A stretch of 64,000 bases of DNA, taken from a virus. Taxonomy: Duplodnaviria > Caudoviricetes. Positions 6,833 to 63,870 of this stretch are shown in pieces (position 1 is the stretch's first letter; each line of letters begins with the position of its first letter). The position numbers were made by a program, and so were the translations under genes. The stretch lies in the IMG/VR virus record IMGVR_UViG_2836755666_000005, positions 21,275-85,274 of that record; one strand, 5' to 3'. The notes beneath the pieces are model-generated. The model made no database searches. It was not told where the DNA came from and saw nothing but the letters and a program-made list of their open reading frames with translations.

Positions 6833-6834
6833 CT

Positions 6835-21435: not shown

Positions 21436-21483
21436 ACTCCGAGATGATTAAATGCTTTTTGAGTAGTGGTGTTCCCTGTGGAT

Positions 21484-22439: not shown

Positions 22440-22450
22440 TTATTTAAACA

Positions 22451-23284: not shown

Positions 23285-23517
23285 ACACCGAGATGAAATT
23301 ATTCAGAAGATTGACCAAGCGTGAGAACGAGGTGCTGCATTGGGTAAGTGCGGGTAAAACGTATTGGGAAATCTCTGTAATATTGGGAATCAAGGAAGGC
23401 ACGGTCAAATTCCACATGGGAAACGTGGTGCGGAAGCTGGATGTATGCAGCGCAAAACAAGCGATAAGAGCCAGTGTTGAATTGGAATTTAGCCAAAGCG
23501 TTGGAGGTGCAGCATGA
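23281..23517 (+). CDS. Stand-alone LuxR DNA-binding domain protein
   Basis: [43 protein letters not shown]. Confidence 0.85.
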
Positions 23518-23873
23518 AATATACCTACACCCTCAACGGATTTCGGCGAACCTATCAGGGGCGCCCTGATGTGCGTTTTACCTGTTGTCACTGTGGCAAA
23601 CTTTCCTTAAATCTCGTGAGTTTTTTCTGGCGTGCAAGACTGGATAACCGCCCCTGTGTTTTTCCTGAAGAAGCGTGTATCGAGTTTGTTGAAAAAATTA
23701 ACCGTAAACAATTCAAGCTGCTTTTTTACCATCCTTCGATGATGAAAGCGTGTTCGGGTGCTTGCTGCCACTGCTCTGATAACCAGCGAGAACAAGCATT
23801 ACCCAAAGCCAGAGGCAGCATTTTGCGGAGATTGGAACAACAGGCGAGTAACCGCGTAGAGGGGGCGAAATAA
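23514..23873 (+). CDS. Cys-rich hypothetical phage protein (paralogue 52334..52693)
   Basis: CCHCG and CCHC motifs; translationally coupled. Confidence 0.7.
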
Positions 23874-25192
23874 TGAAATACTTCAAAGCAACCATCATCA
23901 CAACCGTTGACCACGAGAACGGCAAAACAACATCGCATATCTATCTTGCGTCTGAGACGAAAATTGCCGCCAAGAAATTGGCTTCTCAACATATCTTTGA
24001 AACAGATGGCGCAAATTGCTGTTTTTACAAGTCGCCGCGATTGGAAGAAATCAGCGTTGAGGAATACCTCGCTAATACGGAAAAGCAGACGGATATTACC
24101 GAAGAGCAGGAAATAGACCAGTTTTGCGCTTTGCTAACGATTTTTGGGATTCAGGAAGAATACGACGAGGGCGAAATGCGAGATGCGGATGATTTGTTGG
24201 CTAATCCGTCAGAGGAGCCTGAGCTTTTTGAGGAATATACCAAACTGCGTGACGAGGTAACCTCGGAAATAACAGCGAGTGACAAAGCAATCTCACTCAA
24301 TGAAATCAAAAAACTGGCGATTAGCATCGAAGAAGGTGTACAAAAAGAGAGGTTATTCACACAATCAACAGAGTTATCCACTGAATCTGTAGTTATGCCT
24401 GTGGAAAACGTGGGAGAAGTTGAAAAAAGCGTGACAGATGTCGCACTTGATGAATTGGTTAATAATTGCACAGAAGAAAAGGAGTTGATTAACTCGGTCA
24501 TCAACAATATTGACGACAACTCTATCTTCTCTGCCTTCCCACCCGTTAACGGAAAAATCATAAGCGGTGAAGGTATCGCGCTTGAGATGTTGAACGGTTG
24601 TGTTGATGCATTGAAGCCGACAGAGAGCTTGATTGTTCGCCATCTTGCAAACAGCACCTACCATGCGGCAAACGGTTATTCGAGTACGCAAATTCGATTA
24701 GTTCAGAAAAGTGGATTAGGGGCGCTGGACTGGTACAAAAAAGCACCCATTCAAGGAGAAAAAACAAGAGCGTTGTTGATTGGGGATGCGGTACACACGG
24801 CTATCCTTGAGCCGGAACTTTTTCCGTTGAGATATGTTTCTGCGCCTGAACTGGATTTGCGTACCAAAGATGGCAAAAAAATATTATCGGATTTTGAGAA
24901 AAAAAACCTAACTTTGGCAAGGCTTGTTTTGAAAAAAGAAGAATTTGAGGCAATCCAGTTAATGCGTGATTCTGCACTAGCTTACCCATTGGTTGCCGAA
25001 CTGCTTGAAAACGGTGAGCCAGAACTCTCAATTTTCTATCGCACGGAAAAGGGGACGCTGCTTAAAATCCGGCCTGACTGGTTAGGGCTGTATTCCGGCG
25101 TGCCGTTCATCCTCGATGTGAAAACCACTGATGATGTTCATGACTTTGGCAAATCCGTTGACAAGTTTGGCTATCATCTGCAAGCAGCGTTC

Positions 25193-47648: not shown

Positions 47649-50600
47649 TCAATGACTGGGACTAAATCGGTATTGTTTTCTCTTTTCAAGTACCACGCCC
47701 ATCTCTTTAGCTTTCCTCTCGGCCTCAAAAAATCCGTGGACGATTTCACCGTCTGGAAATCGCCAAGCGTCGCCTGTGCCGTTGGCCAGCCTTGCGATCC
47801 ACACTTCGCTATCTTTTTTGGCTGGAATTAACCGCTTTTTGCTAACTTTAATTTTCTCTCTGAGTTGTATTTTTTCGTCCTCAGACAACTCGGCGGACAA
47901 TACTGTACAATACTCAACGATTTCAGCAAGGTTTTTTTCGTCGGTGGCATCGTCGAGGGCAATTAATGCGGCTTCCAGTTTTGGATGGGTTGCTGGTTGT
48001 GTTTCTGTTGGTGCTTCTATCACCGTTTCTGCTTTTTGACGCTGTTTTTCGTTTCGTTCGCGCAGAACATCCCTCAGTGATAGCCGTTTAAACGAAGCAG
48101 GAGCCATTCTAAGCGGTTTTTCTGTTGAATTTACATCCTTCGTATACCTCAAGCATCAAAAATAGCTCAGAAGCGCAAGGAAGCCGTCTAGCGAGGCGAT
48201 GAATCACTGTCTTGAGTGCCATTCTATCAAACCACTTCACCCACGGACTTGAGTCGTATTTTGCGCTTTGTACCGTATCCCGTATTTTTTCCACGTCAGC
48301 ACGACTCATCACTTCGACAACGAGTTCACCACTATTAAGTTTGGCGAAGGCATAGACTTTCACTATCTCATCACCGTCAACAAACGACGGACGATGCGTT
48401 AAATGCTCGCCATTTTCGTCAATCACATATTCAAACTCGTCTTGAGCATAAACCACTTTTGCAATGATATTAGCTACCTGACCGGATTGACGGGCACGTT
48501 TGATAACACCGTCCACCATCGGCATATAGACGGCTTTTTGTTTGCGAACGTAGCACGCTACGCGTGAGCGGCGCAGCGGTGCTGCTTCGGGGATGTTAAT
48601 GAGTTGAGTACTGTTTTATACTCTGCAGTAGGTTAATTTTTTTCAGGGATTCATCTCGATGGCTCGCAATAAATCTCCCAGAAAGCGTAAACCGGTTAAA
48701 TCAGGCAGGCTGCCCGTCACTTCACGTGCCACAACGCCTGTTTATCTGAAACGTTTTATGATCTCTCTCCCACCCGAAAATGATGATGACAGACCGCCTG
48801 AATTTTTTTATGACACCCTAAAAGAAGCCATACGCCACTGCGTCCGACTCGGCCCCCAATTTTTTCTCGACACGCAGTATTACCCGCCGCTAGTCACGAT
48901 TATCAGGAGTTTTGAACAACGCCAAGACCAAGCCGATGACGCTGGATACGACTACACTGAGGGGGGAATAACTGAAAGTCTGCCTGCCGATGAATTCATC
49001 ACCTATACGGAGCTGGGAATAATCCCTGTTTCCTTTGAACCCTGGGATAAACACACCGATAACTGGGCTGACGAATCTGACAATTTCTGTTTCTTTGGCA
49101 AGATGCCCATAAGGTAATTGAGTCAGATGTATATCCCTCGTCCTGCTAAACTACTTTTCACCATTGATGACGGTTGGAATAAATTCCTCGAAAAATACGG
49201 CGATAGCGTTAGTTCGTGGACGAGTTTATCTGTGGAGCGCATGCTTGCCTGCGGCACTTGTGCCATGGGTGTCCGGCGCTATTGTTGCGCTTCGTCTGAT
49301 TGTTCTCACAGCCGTTTTTTCTGCCAAAGCTGTAAGTCAAAAGCCTGCAGTTCATGTGGCTTTAAAGCCACCGAGCAGTGGTTAGCACAGCAGGTTCATA
49401 TTTTACCCGACTGCGACTGGCAACACATTACTTTCACCATGCCACATCTCCTTTGGCCTTTTTTTAACAATAACTGGCCGCTACTTAATGCTCTGTTTCG
49501 GGCAGCCACTCGAGCTATGCTGCAGTTGGCTCGCAAACAGGGTATCGAAATTGGTATTTTCTGTGCCTTGCATACTTATGGCCGGCAACTCAATCAACAT
49601 CCGCATGTTCATGTTTCCGTCACTCGAGGGGGTTTGGATAGTAAACATAGTGTATGGCGAAAGCTGTTTTTCAAAAAAAAGGATGTCGAAGAAATCTGGC
49701 GAGGGGCTGTTATCCGACTACTGCGTCACAGTTATGATTTAATTAACCCTGGCCTTCTTCCCGGTCTTGGCCATATCCGTGACAAAAAACATTGGCGGCG
49801 TTACTTGAGGGCGCAGTACGGACGTTATTGGAAAGTGCACTTTGCTAAAAAAACGAAAGGGGCATGGCATAGTGTTAAGTACCTCGGTCGCTACCTTAAA
49901 CGCCCACCGGTATCTGCGTCAAAACTGCGGCATTACCGAGGGGTGCCGTTGTTCATCACTACCATGACCACCGAACTGGCCAGCATCGGCAGCAGACTCT
50001 GCCGCAGGAAGAGATGATTAGACGCTATATAAGCCATATTCCGGCCAGGCATTTTAAAATGGTGCGTTACTCTGGTTTTTTGTCGAATCGTAAACGAGGA
50101 AAACTATTGCCGAAAGTGTATAAGGCACTTGAGATGACGGCACGTAAAAAACCGGAGAACCCAGGTTTTTTCTGTGCTGATGAAAGGATTTCTGCGTACC
50201 GATCCGTACAAATGTATTCTGTGTGGCGACAGGCTGCTTTTCACCGGGGCGCAAATGGGTAAAAAAGCAACGGAATTGTTGTCAGAAAGACTGCATAACC
50301 TGGAGAAAAAGCGATGGTTACGCAGCTAAACGCAGGATCAATGTGTCTAAAATAAGGAAATCAGGTTAGAAATTACACTCTCTGAGGAAATGTTAACTGG
50401 CACTAAACACAATAAATCGATCCCCATCTCCTTTTTGCAATAAGGGATGGCTTTTGCTACTCACTTTAAAAGCGATTCAATTTCCTAACCATGAACAACT
50501 AGCACTGCCTCTCTGCCGTCCGGCATCAGTCCGTCTTTGGAGCAGCGAGTTAAAGCCAGTACAAGTGATTGTTTATCGGCTTTTTGCAACTCCGCGTTCT

Positions 50601-50739
50601 CTATCAGTGCAGTCGCTGCGGTTCGGGTAAACTGCTCAGGCGTGACCTGAGCGGGTAACAGGGCGGCGATTCCCTGTTGCATGATGACAGATTGCAGATT
50701 GGTATAAACGTTGGTCATGGTTTCCAGTTCGGTATTCAT
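47649..50739 (-). pseudogene. recT: recT paralogue split by IS91 (plus an indel near 48140)
   Basis: VLVV|RKQKA rejoins across the IS; matches 27780..28922. Confidence 0.85.
48546..50492 (+). mobile_element. IS91 copy in recT (homopolymer indels in the transposase)
   Basis: GAACgtagc...cctaaccat then GAAC. Confidence 0.9.
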
Positions 50740-52334
50740 GCCACACCTCCTTCCAACATCAACGCTTCTCTGCGTTTTCTATCCGCCTGTTTTGACCAGA
50801 AAGGACGGGATATTTTAACTATCGGATAAGTTTCAATGACGCTTTCTAGCATATCAATCACACGGTTGACTTCGTATACGCCCTGTTCGCTATCTTCGTC
50901 GTCTGGCTCACAAAGTATCACCGGAAAACGCCCGCAAACTGTTTTTTTTCCAATCGCGCAGAAAGTGAAAGTCATCGCTTGACCAAAAACCCAATAGGCA
51001 ACCAGACGGTAAAATTCCGCCTGTATGTGATAGCTATACTTGTTAACGGAATTACCAAAATCAAAAACATCTTCTGTTGTTTTCACATCCAACAAGGAGG
51101 GTTTGTCGGAATATATGCCGAAAAAATCAGGGCGGATTTTCAAGAGTGTTCCCTTTTCCGTACGATAGAAAATTGAAACCTCTGGTTCGCCGTTTTCTAG
51201 TAGCTCGTCAACCATTGGGTAAGCCAGTGCAGAATCTCGCATCATTTCAACTTGCTCAAAGTCGTCTTTTTTGAGCACGATTTGATTTTTGGCCACGGAT
51301 TGCGCCTCAAAATCCGCCAAGGTTTGTTTGCCATCTTTGGTTCGCAAATCAACATCTGGCGCACAAAGGTACTGTTCACGGAAGCGCTCCGGCTCAAGAA
51401 TAGCGGCATGTACAGCCGTACCAATCAAAAACGCACCGTTTTTAGTCTCTTTGTAGGGAGCGTCCTTGTTTGAATCTACGACAGCTATTGTTTTTGCTTT
51501 CTGAATCTCTCGTATTTGCGTACTGGAATAGCCGTTTGCCGCATGATAGGTGCTATTTGCGAGGTGGCGAACAATCAGACTTTCTGTGGGTTTTAACGCA
51601 TCAACACAGCCGTTTAACATCTCAAGCTCGATACCCTCGCCGCTCATGATTTTTCCGTTAACGGGTGGGAAAGCAGAGAAAATGGAGTTGTCTTCGATAT
51701 TTTTGATGACCGAGTTAATTAACTCTTTTTCTTCTGTATAATTATTAACCAACTCATCAAGTGCGACATTCGTCACGCTTTTTTCGACTTCTCCCAAGTT
51801 TTCCACAGGTATAACTACAGATTCAGTGGATAACTCTGTTGATTGTGTGAATAACCTCTCTTTTTGTACGCCATCTACAAGATTAATCGCTATTTCTTTA
51901 ACTTCATTAAGGGAAATAATCTTGTCTGCTTCCTGTATTTTCACAGACAACAATTCACGCAGTTCGGTATATTGCTCAAAAAGCTCTGGCTCTTCCGCTG
52001 GATTGGCGAGCAATTCATCTGCATCTCGAATTTCCCCTTCGTCGTACTCTTCCTGAATCCCAAATATCGTCAGCAAAGCGCAAAACTGGTCTATTTCCTG
52101 CTCTTCGGTAATATCCGTCTGCTTTTCCGTATTAGCGAGGCATTCCTCAACGCTGATTTCTTCCAATCGCGGCGATTTGTAAAAACAGCAATTTGCGCCG
52201 TCAGTTTCAAAGATATGTTGAGAAGCCAATTTCTTGGCGGCAATTTTCGTCTCAGATGCAAGATAGATATGCGATGTTGTTTTGCCGTTCTTGTGGTCAA
52301 CGGTTGTGATAATGGTTGCTTTGAAGTATTTCAT
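50736..52334 (-). CDS. Intact RecE/exonuclease VIII-like nuclease
   Basis: GTAVHAAILEPE, KIRPD, DVKTT, YHIQAEFY. Confidence 0.85.
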   Translation of the reverse strand: MKYFKATIITTVDHKNGKTTSHIYLASETKIAAKKLASQHIFETDGANCCFYKSPRLEEISVEECLANTEKQTDITEEQEIDQFCALLTIFGIQEEYDEGEIRDADELLANPAEEPELFEQYTELRELLSVKIQEADKIISLNEVKEIAINLVDGVQKERLFTQSTELSTESVVIPVENLGEVEKSVTNVALDELVNNYTEEKELINSVIKNIEDNSIFSAFPPVNGKIMSGEGIELEMLNGCVDALKPTESLIVRHLANSTYHAANGYSSTQIREIQKAKTIAVVDSNKDAPYKETKNGAFLIGTAVHAAILEPERFREQYLCAPDVDLRTKDGKQTLADFEAQSVAKNQIVLKKDDFEQVEMMRDSALAYPMVDELLENGEPEVSIFYRTEKGTLLKIRPDFFGIYSDKPSLLDVKTTEDVFDFGNSVNKYSYHIQAEFYRLVAYWVFGQAMTFTFCAIGKKTVCGRFPVILCEPDDEDSEQGVYEVNRVIDMLESVIETYPIVKISRPFWSKQADRKRREALMLEGGVA

Positions 52335-52693
52335 TATTTCGCCCCCTCAATGCGGTTATTCGCCTGTTGTTCCAATCTCCGCAAAATGCTGCCTCTGGCT
52401 TTGGGTAATGACTGTTCTCGCTGGTTATCAGAGCAGTGGCAGCAAGCACTCGAACACGCTTTCATCATCGAAGGATGGTAAAAAAGCGCCTTGAATTGTT
52501 TACGGTTAATTTTTTCAACAAACTCGATACACGCTTCTTCAGGAAAAACACAGGGGCGGTTATCCAGTCTTGCACGCCAGAAAAAACTCACGAGATTTAA
52601 GGAAAGTTTGCCACAATGACAACAGGTGAAACGCACATCAGGGCGTCCCTGACTAGTTCGACGAAATCCGTTGAGGGTGTAGGTATATTTCAT
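52334..52693 (-). CDS. Cys-rich hypothetical phage protein
   Basis: Near-identical to 23514..23873. Confidence 0.7.
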   Translation of the reverse strand: MKYTYTLNGFRRTSQGRPDVRFTCCHCGKLSLNLVSFFWRARLDNRPCVFPEEACIEFVEKINRKQFKALFYHPSMMKACSSACCHCSDNQREQSLPKARGSILRRLEQQANNRIEGAK

Positions 52694-52761
52694 GCTACAC
52701 CTCCAACAGACTGAACGGCTTTACCACACGAACGAGGAAGCAAATTCACCGGAATATAGCG

Positions 52762-53316
52762 CTAAAAGCCTTTCGATTTGCAAAATGCCCTTAGCTGACA
52801 AGCTGAATGCACGTCAGCTTTCTCATAAATAATATTTAAATGATGCCCTACCGTTCTCGTTCCGATATCTAGCCGTCTCGCAATTTCCTTAAGACTTAAT
52901 CGCTGAAACGCTAAAAACAGAACATCCCTCTCTCTATCAGTGAACAGCTTGTTAGGTTTTTCTGTAGTGACCGCATAAGGCTGCATGCCATCGACATACT
53001 CCATCGGCGACAAAAACAGGAATTCGTGAGCGTGAAAGAAAGTGCCTAGGTAGCCATTTTCACTACAAAAAAGCGGTAAAAAATGAAAGTGCCAAACAGT
53101 GGGCGATTTCTTGAAATTAGCGGGCAAATTGCACATCAAAGAAAACGGCAATTTTTCAGCGTGAACTTTCTCTATCAACGTTTTCAATTCGGCAGAGAAA
53201 ATCATTGAGTGAAGCAAATCTGACATTGTGAGATTCATTTGAAATTCGCCTTCACTATCAACAAACCCACAGGGAACACCGCTACTCAAAAAGAATTTAA
53301 TCATTTCAGATTTCAT
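52762..53316 (-). CDS. PAS-like/LuxR-HTH regulator, premature TAG near the C-terminus
   Basis: Paralogue of 22658..23284; GAG>TAG, with the tail still encoded downstream. Confidence 0.72.
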   Translation of the reverse strand: MKSEMIKFFLSSGVPCGFVDSEGEFQMNLTMSDLLHSMIFSAELKTLIEKVHAEKLPFSLMCNLPANFKKSPTVWHFHFLPLFCSENGYLGTFFHAHEFLFLSPMEYVDGMQPYAVTTEKPNKLFTDRERDVLFLAFQRLSLKEIARRLDIGTRTVGHHLNIIYEKADVHSACQLRAFCKSKGF

Positions 53317-53453
53317 ACTGCACCTCCGATACTACGAAGATAATCACGCTGACGATTGGTAAGGTGTTTTGATGTGAGAGCAAAGCTCAAATGCTGCTCG
53401 ATTGATATGCCGCACGCTTTCATTATGCGTGCAATATGCGTACTATTTCGCAT
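53313..53453 (-). CDS. 46-aa R-type leader peptide
   Basis: MRNSTHIARIMKACG...IGGAV; ATGA-coupled. Confidence 0.6.
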   Translation of the reverse strand: MRNSTHIARIMKACGISIEQHLSFALTSKHLTNRQRDYLRSIGGAV

Positions 53454-53523
53454 AGTCTGATTCCTACTTTAGCTAGGTTTTGGATTAGCTGGCTGTTCGG
53501 GTTGCCTCCCGTTCAGTCAGCGC
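53451..53523 (+). ncRNA. Putative antisense RNA, hairpin near 53488-53521
   Basis: Same architecture as the other copies. Confidence 0.45.
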
Positions 53524-53528
53524 GAAAA

Positions 53529-53969
53529 TTATTCTTGGTTAATTTTTACTTTATCTAATATACCATTTCTGCTGTAAACTGATGTCCACTCAATCGACTG
53601 AACTCTTGTCCAATCAACTTTCACAGCATATTTTTTATTTACTCTAAATTCACCTCTGCTAATTCGTTCTATTAAACCAGCAGAAATCAAAAAATTAATA
53701 TTATTATTGAAAGTTTGTAACTTAAGATTGTTTGCTTTCAAAAAAGCAGCTTTAGTTTTTGAACCGTAAGCAACAACGTTTTCATAGTTCATATTTAATA
53801 ACATAAAGTTAAAAATTTTATACTGAGTGGCGTTTATCCCTTTAACACGACAGAGATCACGTATATAAACCTTAACAAATTCAGGTTCTGTTAAAATCTC
53901 TCCAGTTATATGATCTATATACGTTGAAGCCATTAAACTCTCCATTAAATACCGATTTATAAGTATCAT
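53529..53969 (-). CDS. RepL-like replication protein (cassette 4)
   Basis: IDHITGEI, EFVKVY, IFNFMLLNMNYENVV, wHTH, FRVN; 22-bp aaaatact..aacggtaa repeats upstream. Confidence 0.6.
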   Translation of the reverse strand: MILINRYLMESLMASTYIDHITGEILTEPEFVKVYIRDLCRVKGINATQYKIFNFMLLNMNYENVVAYGSKTKAAFLKANNLKLQTFNNNINFLISAGLIERISRGEFRVNKKYAVKVDWTRVQSIEWTSVYSRNGILDKVKINQE

Positions 53970-54189
53970 AGTAATAAAATAGCAATATATAAATACTTTT
54001 TTTTAAGTATCTAAGATACTTTTAAATCTTTAAAATACTGCCTAACGGTAACTAAAATACTTCTCAACGGTAATATAGATACTCAACACAATGATTTTAA
54101 ATACCGCCTAGCGGTATTAATATTAGCTTTAAGCCTTGAAAACACTAAACCCACCATTCTTATCTTAAATCTTTCCATAAATAGTTTCA

Positions 54190-54406
54190 GACGACTCAAT
54201 AGCAACCTACTAATCTCCGCTTCAACGTCTCTTGCGGTGAGCAGACTGAGTTACGGAAAAACACGATTTTCTTTTAAAAAAACCAAAAAATCTTTTCAAG
54301 AATTAACGCCCACCGCTCGCCACAGCCAAGTGACCGAGCAACGCGAGCGAACGGGCGAGGAAGCGGAAGATAACCGGAAGTTACAGAAATCACGGTCACT
54401 CGAAAT
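54190..54406. other. pas/ssi-like cassette arm
   Basis: Homologous to the other arms. Confidence 0.55.
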
Positions 54407-54419
54407 TGACAGAAGAAGT

Positions 54420-54672
54420 GACCAAAAAGCGGTAGAAAATGAAATTGCCAAATGGTGGGTGCTTTCTTGAAATTAGCGGGCAAATTGCACATCAAAGAAA
54501 ACGGCAATTTTTCAGCGTGAACTTTCTCTATCAACGTTTTCAATTCGGCAGAGAAAATCATTGAGTGAAGCAAATCTGACATTGTGAGATTCATTTGAAA
54601 TTCACCTTCACTATCAACAAACCCACAGGGAACACCGCTACTCAAAAAGAATTTAATCATTTCAGATTTCAT
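54420..54672 (-). pseudogene. Truncated duplicate of the PAS/LuxR regulator 5' end
   Basis: Near-identical to the first ~83 codons of 52762..53316, then joins the pas arm. Confidence 0.8.
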
Positions 54673-54809
54673 ACTGCACCTCCGATACTACGAAGATAAT
54701 CACGCTGACGATTGGTAAGGTGTTTTGATGTGAGAGCAAAGCTCAAAAGCTGCTCGATTGATATGTCACACGCTTTCATTATGCGTGCAATATGCGTACT
54801 ATTTCGCAT
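54669..54809 (-). CDS. 46-aa R-type leader peptide
   Basis: MRNSTHIARIMKACD... Confidence 0.6.
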   Translation of the reverse strand: MRNSTHIARIMKACDISIEQLLSFALTSKHLTNRQRDYLRSIGGAV

Positions 54810-54878
54810 AGTCCACTCCTAGTCTATTTAGGGTTTGGATCAGGTGCTTGTTGTGGTGACAGCCACTACAAGTACCGC
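54807..54878 (+). ncRNA. Putative antisense RNA, hairpin near 54843-54876
   Basis: ggtgcttgttgtgg/ccactacaagtacc pairs with G.U on +. Confidence 0.45.
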
Positions 54879-54883
54879 TAAAA

Positions 54884-55303
54884 TTATAATCTGTTGTACA
54901 TGAGTAATATATTTAGCCGTTTATTCTTATCTCCTTTAAAAATAACATTAGGATTTAGCATATAAACTCCATTTTGTTTCATCTTCAAAATATCCCCTTT
55001 TTGTAATATTTTTAGAGTTTCAGTAACTATGGGGAGAGAAACCTGACATTTAATAGATATATCTCTTTGTGTGGCAATTATCGTATTTTCAAAGTTCTTA
55101 TTATCCAATAACCACGTCACTACTTTTATTTTTTTACTTCCCATACAATCTAATGCTTGTAAAATATGCCCAAGCCATATTTTTTCAAAGTTGAAATCGG
55201 TATCCTCCATATGAACAACATTCATATCGACTAATTCACCGGTGGATTGGTCAAGATATGTCTTTTTACCGATAATTTTTGATTTGCGCTTGGTTGTTTT
55301 CAT
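54884..55303 (-). CDS. RepL-family replication protein (cassette 3)
   Basis: YLDQSTGEL, FEKIW, WLLDNKNFENTIIATQRDI, GVYMLNPNVIFKG. Confidence 0.75.
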   Translation of the reverse strand: MKTTKRKSKIIGKKTYLDQSTGELVDMNVVHMEDTDFNFEKIWLGHILQALDCMGSKKIKVVTWLLDNKNFENTIIATQRDISIKCQVSLPIVTETLKILQKGDILKMKQNGVYMLNPNVIFKGDKNKRLNILLMYNRL

Positions 55304-55534
55304 ATTTTACTTTCTGTTTAATTATAATTTATACAAATTAGCAAATATTAGTATTTTGGTTAATATTTAAATTTACTATTTTGTACAAAAATTTTTTATA
55401 CAAAAAATAAAGGATTTTTATACGTCTGTAAAAAAATCCTTATACACAAAAATCATAAAAAATAAAATAAAATCAAAGTCTTAAATAACATCCACTTAAA
55501 TTTCACTCTATATCTATGATATAGGAACACCCAA

Positions 55535-55795
55535 ACTACTCATTAGTAGCAAACTAACTTCCGCTTCCTCGTAGCCGCTGTTCGGTGCTCGCAAGCTGCG
55601 CTCCGCCTCAACGTCTCCTGCGGTGAGCGGACTGAGTTAAGGAAAAACCGATTTTCTTTTAAAAAAAAATCAAAAAATCTTTTCAAAATTTAACGCCCAC
55701 CGCTCGCCGCAGCCAAGTGACCGAGCAACGCGAGCGAACGGGCGAGGAAGCGGAAGATAACCGGAAGTTACAGAAAGCACGGTCACTCGAAAATT
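55535..55795. other. pas/ssi-like cassette arm
   Basis: Homologous to the other arms; abuts a truncated luxR at 55796-55893. Confidence 0.55.
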
Positions 55796-55889
55796 ACAGA
55801 GATTTCTCAATAGGTTTTGCCCACACTTACCCAATGAAGCACCTCGTTTTCACGCTTGGTTAATCTTCTGAATAATTTTAAATCGGAGT

Positions 55890-56024
55890 TCATGCCGCAC
55901 CTCCGACTCTATTCAGAATTCGGGTACGCTGACGAAAGGTTAAATTGCGGGATTCACGAGCAAATAACTCGATTATTTGATTTTGCGCTTCAATTACGCG
56001 CACACGGAAGGTACTATTTTGCAT
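55890..56024 (-). CDS. 44-aa hybrid leader peptide (MQNSTFRVRVIEAQ...)
   Basis: R-type start joined to a K-type body. Confidence 0.6.
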   Translation of the reverse strand: MQNSTFRVRVIEAQNQIIELFARESRNLTFRQRTRILNRVGGAA

Positions 56025-56096
56025 AGTCCGACTCCTAGGATAGTTAGGTTGTTGGATTAGGTGCTTGTTGGGAGTTACGATCTCAGCAAGTACCGA
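56022..56096 (+). ncRNA. Putative antisense RNA, hairpin near 56060-56094
   Basis: Three G.U pairs on +; TTCAAT-17-TACTAT at 55989-56017. Confidence 0.5.
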
Positions 56097-56102
56097 CTAT
56101 TT

Positions 56103-56513
56103 TTAAATTAAGTTATTCCAAATTCGTAATATAGTTAAACGATTTCCTACTCCTCCATAATGAATTACGCTAGGGTTTAAAAGGTAGGTTCCTGATCTTT
56201 TCTGTTTTAAGTAACCATTATCTTTTAATGCTTTAAAAACTCTAGCAACTGTAGCAACGCCAACGGACTCTTCTTTAGCTATCTCTCTTTGAGTTCCATG
56301 TATTTCATTTTGATTATTCTTATTTTTTAAAATCCATCCCAAAACTTTCTCACTTCCGTTACCTGTACAACCAATCATTAAAGCTAATTCATTAAGGAAG
56401 ACTTTGTTAAAGGAACCACCATCCTGAGTTTTAAGGATGTCTATACTCATACACTCACCTGTTGTCTTGTGCACTAAATGCCATTCTTCCAAATTCAATT
56501 CCTTAACATTCAT
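56103..56513 (-). CDS. RepL-family replication protein (cassette 2)
   Basis: HKTTGE, FNKVF, NQNEIHGTQREIA, GTYLLNPSVI; tgttatca/tgataac repeats upstream. Confidence 0.72.
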   Translation of the reverse strand: MNVKELNLEEWHLVHKTTGECMSIDILKTQDGGSFNKVFLNELALMIGCTGNGSEKVLGWILKNKNNQNEIHGTQREIAKEESVGVATVARVFKALKDNGYLKQKRSGTYLLNPSVIHYGGVGNRLTILRIWNNLI

Positions 56514-56814
56514 GTTTAATACTCATGATAACGTTTGTTCGGTTAACTCTAACATTTGTTATCACATAAATCAATTATATGTTCCAAAAAATGATATCAA
56601 AACATTATGTTATCAAATTTGATAACAAAATTCCAATATAAACATTTCTTATTATCAAAATGAATACAAAAATTTACCTAAAACTAATGCAATACATTAA
56701 TAAATATAAAAAATAATCTTATTTCAGATAACCCTTCACCGTTCTCATGGAATGTGATAATTTAACAATTTGATTCGGTGCTTCACAGACGAGCACGCGG
56801 AAGGTAGACTTTTT

Positions 56815-56888
56815 CATTAGCCTTACTCCTATCATCGGTAGGTTTAGGGTTAGCTGGTAGTAAGAGGCGAAAACTCTTGCTATCAGCG
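56815..56888 (+). ncRNA. Putative antisense RNA, hairpin near 56853-56887, over a truncated K-type leader
   Basis: gctggtagtaagag/ctcttgctatcagc. Confidence 0.45.
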
Positions 56889-56889
56889 A

Positions 56890-57315
56890 TTACTCATCAA
56901 TATTTATTGATCTGAGCATTTCTTTTGTAATTTTTTCATTTTCACTTTTTGAAAGTAAAATGGGTCCCTCAAATTTGCAATACGCTTTATTTGTTCTCCA
57001 TGCCCTCCATACCACATGAGGATTTAGAACATAGACATTACTTGTACCCATTTTTAGAATGGTTATAAATCCGTTATCTTTTAAACACTTAATAGCTAAA
57101 CTTACAGTTGTTCTTTTTTTACCCGTAACTTCTTCAAGAACACGATGTGAGCAAACTACCGCATTATTTTTATTCATAAATTCGGTTAAGAATAAAAAAA
57201 TATCACCCGAAACGGTATTTTTCTTAAATATCTCTCTAACAGCACCAATATTTTTTTCGGAAAATTGAATAAAAAGGTCTTTATTTTTCCGCATATCCAC
57301 ATTATCTATAAACAT
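56890..57315 (-). CDS. RepL-family replication protein (cassette 1)
   Basis: FLFLTEFMNKNNAVVCS, RTTVSLAIKCL, NVYVLNPHVVW; aaacat/gaacat repeats upstream. Confidence 0.75.
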   Translation of the reverse strand: MFIDNVDMRKNKDLFIQFSEKNIGAVREIFKKNTVSGDIFLFLTEFMNKNNAVVCSHRVLEEVTGKKRTTVSLAIKCLKDNGFITILKMGTSNVYVLNPHVVWRAWRTNKAYCKFEGPILLSKSENEKITKEMLRSINIDE

Positions 57316-57549
57316 ATAGGTTCACAATTTTAAACATCTGTTTATGTAAAACTATAAACACAGTTGTTATTAATGTCAAACACCTTTTATGAAAAAACGA
57401 ACATCTATTTATAAACACATGTTCGATAATACTGAACATATATGTTCAGTAGCTTGTTAAACATATAAAAAATTAAAATTATTTAAAATCAAAAACTTAA
57501 CATCTAGTTCTCCTCTCTTAATCTTGAAGTTTTGGAGAGAGCTACATAC

Positions 57550-57770
57550 AACTCATTAGCAACAAACTAACTTCAGCTTCCTCGTCGACGCTGTTCGGTG
57601 CTCGCAAGCTGCGCTCCGTCTCAACGTCTCCTGCGTTAAAAAAAACCAAAAAATCTTTTTAAAATTTAACCGCCCCCGCTCGCCACAGCCAAGTGACCGA
57701 GCAACGCGAGCGAACGGGCGAGGAAGCGGAAGATAACCGGAAGTTACAGAAAGCACGGTCACTCGAAAAT
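57550..57770. other. pas/ssi-like cassette arm
   Basis: Homologous to the other arms; abuts a truncated luxR at 57771-57869. Confidence 0.55.
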
Positions 57771-57865
57771 TACAGAGATTTCTCAATAGGTTTTGCCCAT
57801 ACTTACCCAATGAAGCACCTCATTTTCACGCTTGGTTAATCTTCTGAATAATTTTAAATCGGAGT

Positions 57866-58000
57866 TCATGCCGCACCTCCGACTCTATTCAGAATTCGGG
57901 CGCGTTGACGAAGGGTTAAATTGCGTGAGGTTCGAGCAAATAACTCGATTATTTGATTCGGTGCTTCACAGACAAGCACGCGGAAGGTAGACTTTTTCAT
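57866..58000 (-). CDS. 44-aa K-type leader peptide
   Basis: MKKSTFRVLVCEAPNQ...GGAA. Confidence 0.6.
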   Translation of the reverse strand: MKKSTFRVLVCEAPNQIIELFARTSRNLTLRQRARILNRVGGAA

Positions 58001-58068
58001 AGCCTTACTCCTATCACAGTTAGGTTTAGGGTTAGCTTTACGTCAGTGTTAGAGCACTGGCGTAAAGT
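57998..58068 (+). ncRNA. Putative antisense RNA, hairpin near 58036-58067
   Basis: ctttacgtcagtg/cactggcgtaaag. Confidence 0.45.
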
Positions 58069-58069
58069 G

Positions 58070-59033
58070 TTATACTTCTATTTTTGCTATCTTTTTGGCT
58101 TTCATCATAAAGGAATTAGTATAATTATTATCCCCTTCCTTCATTATTGAAATAAATGCTAACGCCTCTGCTTTAGAAGCCTCACCTTTATCTATCTTAG
58201 AGGCTAAATAATCAATAAATTCAACTAACTTACTATCTTGTTCTTCTTTGTTTATATTGTTAGTTTCTTTTTTATCTGATACTTTATATTTTAGCTTTAT
58301 GATTATTTTATCAGTATCGGTATACTTTCTTCCTATTCTTTGTATAGAGAAACCTGAAGGTAAGTCTGAATCGAATTCCCATATACCATCTGATTTTTTT
58401 ACAATATTAAGAATTGGACGTTGAATAACTGTCTTTTTGAAGTCATTGAATTTATTAAATTTTCTATAGTCAGACCCAACCATCTTACAAAATTCACCAA
58501 GCGTCGTTGTATAACCATTAATTTTAAATCTACTAACAAGTTCAAGGATTCTTTTTTCATACCCACCTCTTAATGAAAGTAAAAGTTTTAAGTCAACCTC
58601 TGCAAAACCTTTGCTATAATCAAGCATATACTTAATTGCTTCATCTCCAACATCAAGAGTAAGCACGCCATTCCTAAATTCTGCATAACTACAAAAGGAT
58701 ATACGCTCAAAATATTCCATTTGTGTATTTTTGATTTCAACAAACCGTGAAATAAGATGCTTAGTTGCTTCATCTAAAGTTATGTACAATGCCTGTCTAG
58801 ATAAATTAAACAAATTCAATTAATTCACCAGTCGAAAATTTAAATCTTTTTGACATAGCATTAGCGTCTTCATTACCGAATTTAATTTTATCTGCCTCAC
58901 GTTTTAAGCCAACAAAAATCAAACTTAATAAATCTTGTTCTCTAGGTGAGAGGCTCATCCTCGAAGCTATAAAGTGGTGTGACTTTTTAACTTTTGTTCC
59001 CATGATGGCAGTAACTTTAAGAATATTGTTCAT
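58070..59033 (-). CDS. Rep_3-family initiator (indel near 58815)
   Basis: VKKSHHFIASRMSLSPREQDLL, YEKRILELVSRFK, FNDFKKTVI. Confidence 0.78.
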
Positions 59034-59049
59034 ATGTGGATTTAATTAT

Positions 59050-59428
59050 AATAAAATCCGCATATAGTCAAATAAAATCCGCCAAAAAAATATCAAATAA
59101 TATATTCTTAACAAAACAGATGATTATAATTGTATAAATAACAAAGATGAGCAAATTTACATCAAATTTTGCTTGCATTTTAAACAAATACACCATGAAT
59201 AAATGTAAATTCATGCTTGTTAATAGTATTTAAAACGAATCCGCCTATAGTAAAAAACATAACCGCATAAAAAGAATATCTAATTAAAACGAATCCGCCT
59301 ATAGTAAAAAACATAACCGCATAACATCTATTATATAAAGTAAAATCAATAACTTAATCTTGGTCTTTACCTTTCTTTTACCTTATAAATAAAATACCTT
59401 TATTTACCGTAATCCACCTGTGGATAAC
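59050..59428. promoter_or_regulatory. Origin: aaatccgc repeats, two ~41-bp ttaaaacgaatccgcctatagtaaaaaacataaccgcataa repeats, DnaA box 59419-59427
   Basis: Repeats seen directly upstream of Rep_3. Confidence 0.8.
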
Positions 59429-59462
59429 TTTTCCCATCTAAACCGAGAAGTATGTTACTACT

Positions 59463-59560
59463 GAGTGACCGTATTTCTCTTTTGCAATTGTGATATTCCG
59501 CTTCCTCGTCTGCTCACTCGCTTCGCTCGGTCACAGACTGTGGCGAGCGTAGGAATTTTA
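59463..59560. other. pas/ssi-like element, near-identical to 7101-7200
   Basis: Shared gagtgaccgtatttctc...cggtcacagact. Confidence 0.55.
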
Positions 59561-59631
59561 ATCAAAAAAATTTTCAATATTCAATCTCGATTACTACTAT
59601 TATTAGTAATATTTTTTAAGGGAGTTTACAC

Positions 59632-59817
59632 ATGGTTACTAAATTAACTATTGGGGCTATTTGTTTATGTTTAACTTATTCTGTATCTGCCCAAAAAACA
59701 CACCAAATACCAGGAAATCTTGACGCCTGTTGGACAGTTGATGGGGATCGCTGTTGTAAACGACCATGGGGAGAAATTGAATGTTATCACGGGCAAGATA
59801 GACAATCGCCTTTATAG
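59632..59817 (+). CDS. Small secreted Cys-rich peptide
   Basis: RBS agggag; signal peptide ending VSA; mature part C-x7-CC-x8-C. Confidence 0.55.
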   Translation: MVTKLTIGAICLCLTYSVSAQKTHQIPGNLDACWTVDGDRCCKRPWGEIECYHGQDRQSPL

Positions 59818-59952
59818 ATTTTTATTATGCAAAATTGATCAAGTTAGTATTATCTATATATTTTTGTCAGATAATTTAATCAAGATATTGCACTATACAG
59901 GCTATACAACTAGCATCTCTTGGATTAACGTATCCACTAATTCAGGCACACC

Positions 59953-60225
59953 ATGAACAAAACAGAACTCATCAGCAAAGTTGCAGAGAAATCAGGCTTA
60001 AGCAAGAAGGACTCAGAGAAGGCGGTTAATGCTTTCATCGAAACGGTGACAGAGGCTTTGAAAGCGGGAAATGATGTACAGCTTATTGGCTTTGGCAGCT
60101 TTCAGGTGAAGCCCCGAGCAGCCAGAGATGGACGCAATCCAAAAACGGGCGAGACTCTTAAAATTGCTGCTTCAAACGTACCGAGTTTTAAAGCGGGTCA
60201 AAGACTCAAAGAGGCGGTTAAGTAA
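59953..60225 (+). CDS. HU-family DNA-binding protein
   Basis: HU signature. Confidence 0.95.
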   Translation: MNKTELISKVAEKSGLSKKDSEKAVNAFIETVTEALKAGNDVQLIGFGSFQVKPRAARDGRNPKTGETLKIAASNVPSFKAGQRLKEAVK

Positions 60226-60228
60226 TTC

Positions 60229-60501
60229 ATGACCTATGACGCAAAGTCAATTCGCATTCTACGTGAAGACGAAATTAAACAGTTTGACTGGCATTGGGCT
60301 GAGGAATTAGCCCACGAACACATTTTGCCCCTAGATTGGGTCAAACGCGGATTTGAAGCATCAAGACGACTCGGTATTGAACCAGAATTCTTCGTCAACA
60401 AGTATATCCTCAAACAGGACCTCCCCAAAAATGACGAATTCGAGCAAGTCTTCATCGAAGTGCTAAAGGAAGACAGAAAGAAGAGTCAGAATACCCTCTA
60501 A
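60229..60501 (+). CDS. Hypothetical 90-aa protein
   Basis: Identical to 17960..18232. Confidence 0.75.
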   Translation: MTYDAKSIRILREDEIKQFDWHWAEELAHEHILPLDWVKRGFEASRRLGIEPEFFVNKYILKQDLPKNDEFEQVFIEVLKEDRKKSQNTL

Positions 60502-61083: not shown

Positions 61084-62041
61084 TCACCCTATAGAAAACA
61101 TGCCATTGACCAAATCAAACTGAGGGTTTTCGCTTTTAAAAAATCTGTCTTCCCTCGTTACACAGTGGGATTTAATTGCATCAGCAATAATTTCTGCACC
61201 TCCACCTATCACCATCACATGGGTATACCCACTGAATGTATTAACGGCGTCCAGTACACGATTAATCAGTCGATGTTTTGATTCCTTGAGTGAAGCAAGA
61301 ACCTGATTTATTTGGCTTGCATCGTTGATACGGCGTTTTAAGTAATTCATATCGTGACTGTTGATGATAATATCATCCGCCAAGTAGTTGCTGCCGTTGG
61401 TTTTTGCCAAACTAAGCGCTTCTTTGACAGATTGCGTCATCATTGAGACACCTAGATGAGAGTTTCCGTATATCTTCGACACACCACTCATTTTTCCCAT
61501 CACTTGCGCTATATCCAGCGTTGTACCCCCTAAATCCACAATCAAAAGCGAGTCGAGGTCATCAAGCGCTTTTGCTATGGAAAATCCAGCAGGGATGGAT
61601 TCCGGCATGACTTCAACATTTATGATGTTAAAAGTTTGTCCACCTTTAACTTCAACCAATTTTTTAAAATTGTCTTTTTTCCTCTGTATGTTCGCAAAAT
61701 TCGGCTGATTTTTGGTATCGAAATATTCAGCAATCGGCAAAGAGACGACGATTTCCACATCTTGAGGGGGTAATTTTGACTGGAGTAAGGCGTGATGCAC
61801 TGCAATTACATTCACATCGCTATACTGATATCCCACATTGGTTGTCGTAACAGCAATAGGACTTATCGCATCGAAAGAGTACATTTCGCCATTGATGGTA
61901 TAATTTTGAACTATTGCTGTCACCAAAAGAAACTGACCAATCACGCTTAAAGCTATTTGGGCTAATGAAGTGTTTCTGAATTCCTTCCTCACTCCATGAT
62001 AATTTGATATTTGTTGAGCCATCATCGATATATATTTTCAC
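61084..62041 (-). CDS. parM: ParM/StbA ATPase (one indel near 61905)
   Basis: [30 protein letters not shown]. Confidence 0.9.
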
Positions 62042-63084: not shown

Positions 63085-63870
63085 GTGAAAAGTGCCGCTA
63101 CATTACGACTGATAGGTAATCCTCATGCATATTATCCAAATTTAGCCAAACCGCTTGGCGGATTAACCTCAGCAATTCTTTTTTCCCAAATATTTTACTG
63201 GCAGGACAAAGCGAATTCTGAATTAGGGGTTTACAAAACTCGAGCTGATCTCGAAGAAGAAACCGGATTGACACATGACGAACAACGAACAGCAATAAAA
63301 AAATTAGTTTCAATCGGTGTGTTAATCGTGACTGAAAAGCGTCTTGAACACAAAACTTATTACCGGATTGACGAAGAAAAATTAAACGAGATTCTGGATA
63401 ATTTCGCCAATTCAAAAAAGGGATTTTCGCGAGATGGAGAAAGTGGAGCTCCCGAAGTAGACATTGTCGAGTTCGGGGAATCGACATTATCGAGTTCGTT
63501 AGATCAAGAGATTACTACAAAGATTACTACAATAGATCCCTCTATAATCTCCCTTACGAAAAAATCGAAGGTTTTTGACCCAAATTCGCTAGAACTTCCA
63601 AACTGGTTATCAAGATCAACTTGGCATTCTTGGTTGCAGTACCGCAAGGAAATTAACAAACCAGTCAAATCCAAAATGACGGTTAACCAGACTATCAAGC
63701 TGTTGGCAAAGTGCCGTGATAGGGGTTATTCGCCAGAAGACATCATCAACACCAGTATCGCCAATGGCTGGCAAGGACTTTTTGAACCCAAAGAGACCCA
63801 AACGCAGAAATCCCGATTTGGATTTAAAGAGATCGCCAAAACGGATGTTTTCATCACCGATGATTTTTGA
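63085..63870 (+). CDS. Phage replication initiator protein
   Basis: LFSQIFYW..VYKT..EETGLT wHTH; SIANGWQGLFEPK; paralogue precedes dnaC. Confidence 0.78.
   Translation: MKSAATLRLIGNPHAYYPNLAKPLGGLTSAILFSQIFYWQDKANSELGVYKTRADLEEETGLTHDEQRTAIKKLVSIGVLIVTEKRLEHKTYYRIDEEKLNEILDNFANSKKGFSRDGESGAPEVDIVEFGESTLSSSLDQEITTKITTIDPSIISLTKKSKVFDPNSLELPNWLSRSTWHSWLQYRKEINKPVKSKMTVNQTIKLLAKCRDRGYSPEDIINTSIANGWQGLFEPKETQTQKSRFGFKEIAKTDVFITDDF

Follow-up and report, generated by a model that had tools for sequence, protein, structure and literature searches.

How do so many related replicons coexist in one bacterium? The question is an old one, and it is raised by the wasp symbiont Arsenophonus nasoniae, many of whose extrachromosomal elements are sibling phage-plasmids. 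A 64,000-nucleotide (nt) stretch of IMG/VR virus record IMGVR_UViG_2836755666_000005 (here referred to as the window, whose positions serve as coordinates throughout) carries five replication modules within 6.2 kb, all in one orientation on the minus strand between 53.3 and 59.6 kb. The five initiator genes, one of the Rep_3 family and four of the RepL family, each have their own origin-like DNA and lie on one circular plasmid. The reading that we favor, and hold to be probable, is that of a true tandem array of minireplicons which are gained, lost, and permuted by homologous recombination in shared arms, giving a multi-replicon plasmid; such an array offers one concrete route to coexistence.

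Five replication modules on plasmid pArsFIN4

Window positions 52300 to 60300 were identical to plasmid pArsFIN4 of A. nasoniae strain FIN (NZ_CP038616.1; 85,274 bp, circular), the host plasmid of the array. pArsFIN4 carries phage genes (head, tail, lysis, and terminase), a partition system of the ParM/StbB type, toxin-antitoxin pairs, and many copies of IS91, IS21, and IS3. At least three related phage-plasmid backbones contribute pieces to it, making it a mosaic of several sibling-derived parts, and the locus itself is hosted by a degraded derivative, ridden with insertion sequences (IS), of a phage-plasmid of ∼37 kb. The available portions of PMC7157526 describe ∼17 extrachromosomal elements in A. 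nasoniae, several of them circular prophage DNA; neither RepL nor the array is mentioned in those portions or in the corresponding excerpts of a 2023 Arsenophonus comparative preprint (10.1101/2023.05.02.539033).

An original prediction, made from the sequence alone, had listed the initiators as one Rep_3 and four mutually divergent RepL-like proteins, and this composition was borne out. All four minus-strand genes scored above the cutoff of the Pfam RepL model (PF05732; gathering score, 20.3 bits): RepL_a (positions 56890 to 57315; 40.1 bits), RepL_b (56103 to 56513; 83.5 bits), RepL_c (54884 to 55303; 159.8 bits), and RepL_d (53529 to 53969; 25.2 bits). Pairwise identities among them were 22 to 33%. 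The model was also passed by six of the eight sibling RepL-like proteins scanned, including the RepL of plasmid paPv18 and the product of the plus-strand gene at 21924 to 22439 (21.2 bits), which corresponds to the additional RepL-like gene expected in the same context at 21.5 to 22.7 kb. Across species, five RepL orthologue pairs gave ratios of nonsynonymous to synonymous substitution (dN/dS) of 0.02 to 0.06 at dS values of 0.18 to 2.5 (0.02 to 0.03 for RepL_b; 0.06 for RepL_d), indicative of strong purifying selection; Pfam membership and dN/dS together support the proposal that these small winged helix-turn-helix (wHTH) proteins are RepL-family initiators. At ≥99% identity, each array RepL type was confined to array records (5 of 277, 5 of 596, 5 of 80, and 5 of 129 matching records), in keeping with one type per strain.

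Each RepL gene sits in a private segment composed of AT-rich repeats, the gene itself, and a long hairpin, and these segments alternate with a conserved arm. The private repeats proposed to lie upstream of each Rep gene were recovered with enrichments of ∼7- to 200-fold, measured against window-wide density rather than local AT content. All lie on the minus strand. The AT-rich repeat region of cassette a (57316 to 57544) carries TAAACA and GAACAT motifs, and that of cassette b (56514 to 56757) carries TGTTATCA motifs, with 3 of the 8 window occurrences of TGTTATCA falling within its 244 nt. TTTTRTACAAAAA occurs twice in the repeat region of cassette c (55304 to 55531), and the iteron-like region of cassette d (53970 to 54214) has three copies of a 22-nt unit at 54031 to 54118.

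The main replicon is that of the Rep_3-family initiator (58070 to 59033, minus strand). This gene is split in the assembly, with the first 75 codons forming a separate open reading frame (ORF; 58806 to 59033) and the remainder, in which Pfam identified Rep3_N and Rep3_C (models PF01051 and PF21205), lying at 58070 to 58819. Base 58811 was absent from the short-read unitigs of all three covering runs, which also showed further single-A homopolymer differences, and Rep_3 is intact in strain UK (933 nt, 310 amino acids [aa]), where plasmid paNv_UK10 additionally carries a gene for replication initiator protein A. The frameshift is most likely an assembly error of one extra base near 58811. Upstream of Rep_3, iteron-like repeats (59034 to 59460, minus strand) include AATCCGC-containing 44-nt units at 59044, 59227, and 59281; the four copies of AATCCGC in these 427 nt, compared with 0.11 expected at window density, are directly repeated iterons beside Rep_3. 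Next to them is a primosome assembly site (pas)-like element, or single-strand initiation (ssi) signal, on the plus strand (59463 to 59574), inverted relative to those of the array arms and sharing 77 to 90% identity with the other pas copies by BLASTN; its core, ATTCCGCTTCCTCG, begins at 59495. An HU-family gene (59953 to 60225, plus strand; Pfam Bac_DNA_binding; E value, 3.9e−36) is the conserved right-hand neighbor of the replication region in every sibling, adjoining the main Rep gene in eight of the nine sibling loci mapped and lying further out, past a phytochelatin synthase gene, in paPv6. Another HU gene with a pas-like element is present at 7.1 to 7.6 kb of the window.

The arms separating the units are ∼430 to 530 nt in length and consist of the 5′ part of an antisense RNA, a leader ORF, an early-gene stub, and two opposed ColE1-like pas cores. 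Their repetition between Rep genes, which the prediction had emphasized, is evident from the 95% identity of 53065 to 53497 with 54421 to 54852 and the 84% identity of 55532 to 56060 with 57545 to 58035. Besides the inverted copy of the main replicon, pas-like segments were identified at 54215 to 54413, 55652 to 55800, and 57636 to 57776. The minus-strand arm before cassette a (57545 to 57776) has one pas core on the coding strand (57636 to 57776) and a second on the opposite strand (57545 to 57635), and the arm before cassette c (55532 to 55800) has the same arrangement (55652 to 55800 and 55532 to 55622, respectively). The arm before cassette d (54215 to 54413, minus strand) has a pas core only, with no opposed second core, and the unit of RepL_b at 56103 has no pas arm, as originally observed. 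Minus-strand copies of the 14-mer CTTCCGCTTCCTCG lie at 55756 and 57732, and plus-strand copies at 55558 and 57571 (one mismatch); unit d has the minus-strand copy only. The pas core of unit d is 86% identical over 71 nt to positions 824 to 893 of an Escherichia coli ColE1-type (Col-type) plasmid, which lie between rop (611 to 802) and the RNAI-defined origin region (RNAI, 1391 to 1490), and sequences 82 to 87% identical to the pas core are present in at least 5,000 enterobacterial plasmids. According to the excerpted text of PMC3167613, ColE1 origins have two primosome assembly sites, ssiA and ssiB, one per strand. The early-gene stubs of the window and its siblings end at three main junction types. 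The most common stub comprises codons 1 to 35 of a 78-aa GerE-type helix-turn-helix (HTH) gene (seven copies seen); the others comprise LuxR codons 1 to 30 and LuxR codons 1 to 83, the latter only at 54424 to 54672.

A conserved leader ORF and a different hairpin after each Rep gene had been described as separate features. The leader ORF stands, but the hairpins are the terminator stems of an antisense RNA gene that shares the leader region. Read on the coding strand, this part of the arm contains a CTAAYCC.AAACCTA motif, a variable heptamer, a Shine-Dalgarno sequence, and a leader ORF of 44 to 46 codons whose stop codon overlaps the next start codon (ATGA). On the plus strand, the hairpin and the CTAAYCC motif together are predicted to form a small structured RNA. 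RNA 1 (58001 to 58071, plus strand) overlaps the ribosome-binding site (RBS) of a 44-codon leader ORF (57866 to 58000), which is followed by a GerE-type HTH stub of codons 1 to 35 (together 57765 to 58000, minus strand). Its terminator is the hairpin after Rep_3 (terminator-like stem at 58035 to 58068), a long stem that scores as a plus-strand terminator, and a promoter-like TTCACA-17-TAGACT sequence (57965 to 57993) ends 8 nt before 58001 and recurs before the copy at 56818. RNA 2 (∼56818 to 56888, plus strand) is accompanied by the first 20 leader codons only (56758 to 56817, minus strand), and no pas arm comes after this block (56758 to 56888). The RNA 3 block (55789 to 56095) comprises the RNA (∼56025 to 56095, plus strand), the leader ORF (55890 to 56024, minus strand), and an HTH stub (55789 to 55893); that of RNA 4 (54424 to 54880) comprises the RNA (∼54810 to 54880, plus strand), the leader ORF (54669 to 54809, minus strand), and the LuxR stub of codons 1 to 83 (54424 to 54672). 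RNA 5 (53454 to 53524, plus strand), for which, as for RNA 1, there is covariation, adjoins the leader ORF at 53313 to 53453, which overlaps by ATGA a full LuxR/GerE-type regulator gene (52762 to 53316; together 52762 to 53453, minus strand).

RNAalifold analysis of 22 copies from 12 replicons gave 24 base pairs, 13 of them with compensatory changes. Alignment cells were paired in 97.1% of cases compared with 35 to 47% when the partners were slid, and none of 500 shuffles reached the observed covariation. Because the invariant or frequent G-U pairs would mismatch on the mRNA strand, the fold is assigned to the antisense strand. Its first stem-loop spans the leader RBS, the loop being the variable 7 nt, and its second stem is the hairpin noted originally. 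A simple terminator scan returned three sites compared with 4.1 expected, two of the three being antisense-RNA terminators. No Rfam family was found above threshold within 50 to 64 kb; RNA 1 and RNA 5 resembled SymR (RF01809) at 36.3 and 32.2 bits, short of the threshold of 61 bits for membership. A conserved structured RNA opposite the leader RBS is what would be expected of a cis-antisense regulator, and an antisense RNA plus leader module heading the early operon of a phage-plasmid is undescribed.

The whole 8 kb was recovered in one piece, at 99.7 to 100% identity, in 5 of 78 matching plasmid records, representing four strains and two assembly projects: pArsFIN3 and pArsFIN4 (strain FIN, 85 kb each), paNv_UK10 and paNv_CH10 (36.9 kb each), and paNv_CAN4 (76.7 kb). 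This recurrence identifies the array as real and not a misassembly. Most virion genes are missing from the 36.9-kb array plasmid, in which insertion sequences abound. Read evidence was taken from Logan unitigs, no single one of which spans the array. Since unitig depth was near equal for all five private segments (1,414 to 1,682 in run X1; 381 to 432 in run X5), one molecule with each private segment once is indicated; from run X13, in which 13 of 30 bins were covered at a depth of ∼3, conclusions were confined to the covered parts. Six listed unitig joints (sides of 30 to 65 nt) were considered as rearrangements and rejected, at least two being the LuxR-stub-to-pas junction known from siblings, which points to sibling sequence or repeat overlap.

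Several irregularities of the FIN assembly were also observed. At 56585 to 56667 and 59052 to 59428, unitigs from up to three runs and the window differed at eleven positions within AT-rich homopolymers, each time by an insertion of one or two A/T bases, which suggests long-read consensus errors in non-coding origin regions. ParM (61084 to 62041) is apparently frameshifted, its N terminus being a separate 73-codon ORF (61820 to 62041) that overlaps a 313-codon ORF; it is unannotated here in RefSeq, and in siblings the gene is intact at 957 nt. In view of the homopolymer errors, the ParM frameshift may likewise stem from the assembly. Strain FIN has two 85-kb records, pArsFIN3 (NZ_CP038615.1) and pArsFIN4, with the same array and mostly shared protein accessions, and the Rep_3 gene of pArsFIN3 is broken up differently than that of pArsFIN4. 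The two may be isomers, duplicates, or two real plasmids.

The cassette slot in sibling plasmids and other species

Cassettes were mapped by tblastn with a fixed query set, which would miss RepL types outside that set. Features were mapped on the window and nine sibling loci, and the mapping of the slot covered 11 Arsenophonus plasmid loci (11 records), set against 72 matching PLSDB records, plus nine GTDB contig loci. The slot lies between the HU gene plus main Rep gene and the leader-led early operon. It holds no RepL cassette in paNv_UK9 and the pArsFIN5 fragment, one in paNv_CH8, paNv_CAN10, and paPv2, two in paPv6 and pArsFIN11, and at least two in paPv7. Plasmids paPv6 and pArsFIN11 have the same two cassettes in opposite order, with homology running through both flanking arms (88 to 91% over ∼1.5 kb). 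The proposed replicon swapping is matched by variation in cassette number (0 to 4), identity (at least 11 RepL-like types), and order between fixed arms, but not within the four Nasonia-derived strains, where the array is invariant.

The 119-aa protein of the early operon, used as a query against species-representative genomes, identified nine loci. Scaffold 4 of Candidatus Phlomobacter fragariae (∼1000 to 9400) has an independent stack, in which a Rep_3-family gene is followed by four RepL-like cassettes whose best matches are to a 522-nt type (57% and 98%), RepL_a (61%), and the 477-nt type of paPv7 (100%). After each of these cassettes come an antisense-RNA-like sequence and a leader, and the stack precedes LuxR, the 119-aa protein, and RecE. 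One cassette each was found at three loci of Candidatus Arsenophonus triatominarum and at one further Phlomobacter locus, one of them with a stub ending at RecE codon 62; four Phlomobacter loci had no cassette detectable with the queries used.

Individual cassettes were also traced to other backbones. Cassette d, from pas to hairpin, shares 87% DNA identity with a segment of an A. apicola plasmid of different backbone, and cassette b shares 88% with another A. apicola plasmid, where it does have a pas arm. Breakpoints fall at the arm borders: when loci with the same RepL were compared, homology ended directly after the terminator hairpin at CTAAYCC in three of four comparisons and ran on through the leader in the fourth. 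The arms are common to co-resident siblings and 84 to 97% alike, and the private segments are unalignable.

The nearest relatives of the array RepLs were found on small plasmids, and in plasmids of 1.3 to 2.5 kb such relatives are the sole rep gene that can be recognized. RepL_a is 44% identical to the RepL of Bacillus-group plasmids of 3.4 to 15 kb, and RepL_c is 37% identical to that of staphylococcal plasmids of 1.3 to 2.5 kb. RepL_d is present at 97% identity in A. apicola and is 61% identical to the RepL of the 2,372-bp A. nasoniae plasmid paPv18; RepL_d relatives at this level (61%) are the only recognizable rep gene of paPv18 and of E. coli plasmids of 2.2 to 2.3 kb. Plasmid paPv18 and the E. 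coli plasmid fetched (2,337 bp) share the order of an opposed pas core, iterons similar to those of cassette d, and RepL. No Rfam RNA, including RNAI, was found in either at E values up to 0.1; the 2.3-kb E. coli plasmid is typed Col(MG828), yet lacks RNAI by Rfam. Downstream of its RepL, paPv18 carries a hairpin and a CTAACC..AACCTA..GGAGG motif, and tblastn did not find a leader ORF homologue in it. RepL_b is present at 98.5% identity in A. apicola and at 90 to 95% in 21 Proteus/Providencia plasmid records. RepL was considered as the sole replicon of the Proteus plasmids, and this was rejected on the full record, which also has a RepA gene. On a 36-kb Proteus mirabilis plasmid (positions 3991 to 4600), a type IV secretion operon comes after RepL_b (92.6%), a sequence resembling the antisense RNA, and a leader-like ORF (51% across 41 aa); such a trio may travel as a unit, heading different operons.

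Beyond the full regulator gene, the early operon of the window continues on the minus strand (50485 to 52693) with the 119-aa protein (52334 to 52693), a RecE-like PD-(D/E)XK nuclease (50736 to 52334), and the start of recT (50485 to 50739). The last unit had been thought to lead into a nearly full-length regulator and recE-recT; the regulator and the RecE-like nuclease are present, but recT is not intact, being cut by IS91 after codon 84. Intact RecET is encoded by siblings. A second, sibling-derived copy of the locus lies in the same molecule (21242 to 25192, plus strand), with one RepL-like cassette (21924 to 22439). It falls in an inverted sibling-derived region at 18.2 to 25.2 kb that also has genes for a Rep_3-family protein and a phytochelatin-synthase-like protein, along with a RecE interrupted by IS91.

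Proposed recombination in the arms and alternative readings

How might such an array form? Each RepL cassette would be a self-contained minireplicon resembling the cryptic plasmids of 2.2 to 2.4 kb, with an ssi signal, iteron-like repeats, RepL, and a terminator hairpin. The arm is common to every sibling phage-plasmid of a cell and to relatives in other Arsenophonus-clade species, and recombination within it, by host RecA or by RecET of the elements themselves, would exchange, add, delete, and reorder the private cassettes. Because the arms are long, shared, and highly alike while the private segments cannot be aligned, such recombination would be enough to swap, add, remove, or reorder cassettes. 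Stacking could follow from unequal crossing-over between arms, or from plasmid fusion and subsequent deletion. New cassette types would probably enter from small RepL plasmids with the same pas and the same post-RepL motif, an entry that is plausible because the pas core is shared and, in paPv18, so is the motif after RepL. The likely effect is that a plasmid would still be maintained when one of its replicons meets an incompatible sibling. Both the route and any benefit of stacking are read from anatomy and comparison.

The array plasmid is free (36.9 kb) in two strains and lies within larger records (76.7 and 85 kb) in two others, which suggests ongoing recombination among siblings. RecET may help cassette exchange; the copy beside the array is broken, though intact ones exist in siblings. 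No recombinase gene was identified between HU and recT and no short att-like site at the cassette borders, dif-like sites not having been scanned for; the borders are the homologous arms themselves, unlike those of an integron-like or site-specific array. There is no sign of a dedicated capture enzyme, and ordinary homologous recombination between arms fits at least as well as a dedicated system.

Several observations weigh against the array as a set of exchangeable working replicons. The array is identical across the four Nasonia-derived strains, indicating no turnover on that time scale, and paNv_UK9 is a complete-looking sibling without any RepL. Every larger plasmid examined has another initiator (Rep_3, RepA, or TrfA) beside RepL, and given these companions, RepL may be dispensable or have another role. 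That the cassettes fire as origins is suggested by their anatomy and relatives rather than demonstrated, and the pas-arm DNA does not fold significantly more stably than shuffled sequence (z, −0.7 to −1.9). The coexistence of pArsFIN3 and pArsFIN4 would be odd for identical replicons unless they are isomers or an assembly duplicate. Finally, the left end of pas is constant to within a few bases, whether it abuts codon 35 of the HTH gene, codon 30 of LuxR, codon 21 of the leader, codon 62 of RecE, or, in A. apicola, non-coding DNA, and this constancy is left unexplained by plain homologous exchange. It may reflect a hot spot linked to the priming site or to the firing of the origin. Short microhomology of the CTGT type is visible at two pas junctions. 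Independent site-specific joins were considered for the constant end and dropped, since several junctions retain a few bases of the most common one; these may be later deletion derivatives of that junction.

An alternative that we consider unlikely, and less likely as the whole story in view of the relatives on small plasmids, the siblings that have no RepL, and the absence of a P1-like record from the phage matches of three of the four RepLs, is that RepL is the phage-mode (early or lytic) initiator, as is repL of P1, with Rep_3 serving the plasmid state and the array being a set of alternative lytic origins. The RepL genes do lie directly upstream of, and co-oriented with, the early operon (regulator, RecE, and RecT), and P1-like phage-plasmids are described in the accessible sections of PMC9837566 as having a lytic repL and a plasmid rep gene. 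RepL genes also occur in phages. Two related 37-kb Vibrio phages, 1.148.O and 1.233.A, carry different RepL types in the same position (6013 to 6411 and 5989 to 6390), one 57% identical to RepL_d and the other 29% identical to RepL_a, with a 510-aa protein common to both phages and a primase/helicase encoded directly downstream; different RepL genes at one slot imply that RepL alleles are swapped in phage replication modules as well. Pseudoalteromonas phages HS5 and HS1 have d-like (67%) and c-like (32%) genes. However, close relatives are the only rep gene of 2.2- to 2.4-kb plasmids free of phage genes, RepL_b is found in conjugative-type Proteus plasmids and an A. apicola plasmid, and every cassette brings ssi signals and iteron-like repeats of its own. 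RepL is missing from some siblings, as are most virion genes from the array-bearing 36.9-kb plasmid. P1-like records were absent from the 3, 5, and 10 tblastn matches of RepL_a, RepL_c, and RepL_d, respectively, in 50,697 phage records (RepL_b was not searched).

A 261-aa protein encoded at 63085 to 63870, with no Pfam match at E values up to 0.01, lies just ahead of a gene for a DnaC/IstB-like ATP-binding protein at the start of the record. The two could form the initiator/loader pair of the phage mode, and the role of RepL would then have to be seen in that light.

The possible hot spot at pas or the origin feeds into a further alternative, to which we give a slightly smaller chance: a dedicated cassette cycle in which a unit excises as a self-replicating minicircle (compare lambda-dv) and re-enters siblings by a single crossover in the leader, making the locus a landing pad. 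One crossover into a cassette-free sibling would yield the order seen, namely Rep, antisense RNA, leader, stub, pas, origin, RepL, antisense RNA, leader, and full early gene. The combination of a variable stub end with a near-fixed pas end would be expected if circles close a fixed origin-proximal end to a variable distal end; a free 2.4-kb pas and RepL plasmid exists in the same species, and cassette order is permuted between siblings. Against this, neither a circle junction nor a variant array was present in public unitigs, which cannot show rare forms, and paPv18 lacks a leader ORF homologue by tblastn. Junctions that retain bases of the most common one look like later deletions and not independent closures, and unequal crossing-over explains gain, loss, and permutation without circles. 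A broader version, also unlikely in our estimation, would make the slot between the main replicon and the early operon a landing pad for RepL minicircles that excise through recombination of the arms, persist as paPv18 does, and re-enter any sibling by way of leader/pas homology, with origins as exchangeable cassettes and with travelling variable-loop RNAs reassigning early-operon immunity.

Immunity has also been considered as the primary function. The array would then be a stack of regulatory modules in which antisense RNAs, and perhaps wHTH regulators, silence the early operons of siblings, with replication secondary; we judge this very unlikely. Such a role would suit the antisense RNA, of which the array has five copies whose stem is conserved and whose 7-nt loop varies, as it would the overlap of the RNA with the RBS of a leader ORF that itself overlaps the regulator start codon, and the Proteus plasmid places the same trio at the head of its secretion operon. 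Yet none of the four stub-associated array loops matched a full-length early-operon loop among the loci fetched, the homology of RepL to the sole rep genes of tiny plasmids favors initiators, and expression of the antisense RNAs is a prediction from sequence, no RNA run having been listed as containing the stretch.

An assembly artefact, in which a long-read assembler collapsed or mis-chained repeats, is extremely improbable: the window has many homopolymer errors, the array is unspanned by any single short-read unitig, and the FIN assembly has near-duplicate 85-kb records, but the same 8 kb recurs in one piece at 99.7 to 100% identity (five records, four strains, two projects), all private segments have equal depth in both the 2013 and the 2023 runs, and analogous arrays exist in further plasmids and species.

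On the favored reading, a tandem array of minireplicons exchanged through shared arms, switching of compatibility by recombination becomes directly testable in a culturable symbiont. The locus connects tiny cryptic RepL plasmids, ColE1-like priming signals that are maybe portable homology, and an antisense RNA plus leader module. If the cassettes are inert, the array is a striking scar of plasmid fusion and deletion.

Comparison with known systems

IncF plasmids with FIA/FIB/FII mosaics are multi-replicon plasmids formed by fusion and deletion. Multi-replicon plasmids resemble the array in having several initiator and origin modules per plasmid, which arise from recombination between co-resident elements and are thought to ease limits of incompatibility or host range. 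They differ in that insertion sequences or long stretches of backbone lie between their modules, whereas here five modules occupy 6.2 kb in one orientation, separated by a repeated arm of ∼0.5 kb, and the Arsenophonus slot holds 0 to 4 modules across siblings. Multireplicon plasmids and cycles of fusion and deletion are also known from Staphylococcus aureus (PMC13672794, in the portions available).

P1 and P1-like phage-plasmids likewise combine an iteron-type plasmid initiator with a separate RepL near early genes (PMC9837566, excerpted), but P1 has one repL and no stack, and the nearest relatives of the array RepLs are those of small plasmids. The small RepL plasmids themselves (staphylococcal, 1.3 to 2.5 kb; E. 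coli, 2.2 to 2.3 kb; paPv18) share the initiator family and, for type d, the layout too. They are free circles with one replicon, while the array modules are integrated, stacked, and flanked by phage-plasmid leader sequences.

The variable maintenance loci of Borrelia cp32 plasmids have a role in compatibility, and cp32 plasmids are not known to carry more than one maintenance locus each. We know of no stacking of several replicons in one cp32 slot. The likeness lies in the many related prophage-plasmids per cell that differ in their maintenance regions. Families of co-resident cp32 prophage-plasmids are described in the accessible parts of PMC10016077 and PMC5310021.

With ColE1 ssiA/ssiB, the array shares the 71 nt at 86% identity to the ori-rop interval and the placement of two cores on opposite strands. 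It differs in that its pas cores, whose PriA-dependent priming is putative, accompany protein-initiated (RepL and Rep_3) origins and form part of a repeated recombination arm. Integron arrays and the pdif modules of Acinetobacter move cargo genes by a site-specific recombinase acting on short att or dif sites. They too are ordered, exchangeable modules between conserved borders that vary in number and order among relatives; the Arsenophonus array has instead long homologous arms, no adjoining recombinase gene, and replication origins as its cargo.

Control by an antisense RNA and a leader peptide is known from IncFII (CopA/tap/repA), IncI/IncB (RNAI/repY/repZ), and SymR/symE. As in IncFII, IncI/IncB, and SymR/symE, the predicted short antisense RNA of the array starts just inside the leader ORF and covers its RBS, and translation of the next gene would be coupled to that of the leader. 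IncFII and IncI control a rep gene, whereas the predicted target of the array module is the LuxR/GerE-type regulator that heads the RecET operon; the RNA is not a SymR member (36 bits versus the 61-bit threshold). A small number of literature searches, confined to open-access text, turned up no account of stacked RepL cassettes. What is unusual, set beside these systems, is the combination of five replicons in 6.2 kb, a repeated arm made of a priming signal and an antisense-RNA/leader module, and a fixed slot that holds 0 to 4 cassettes across siblings and species.

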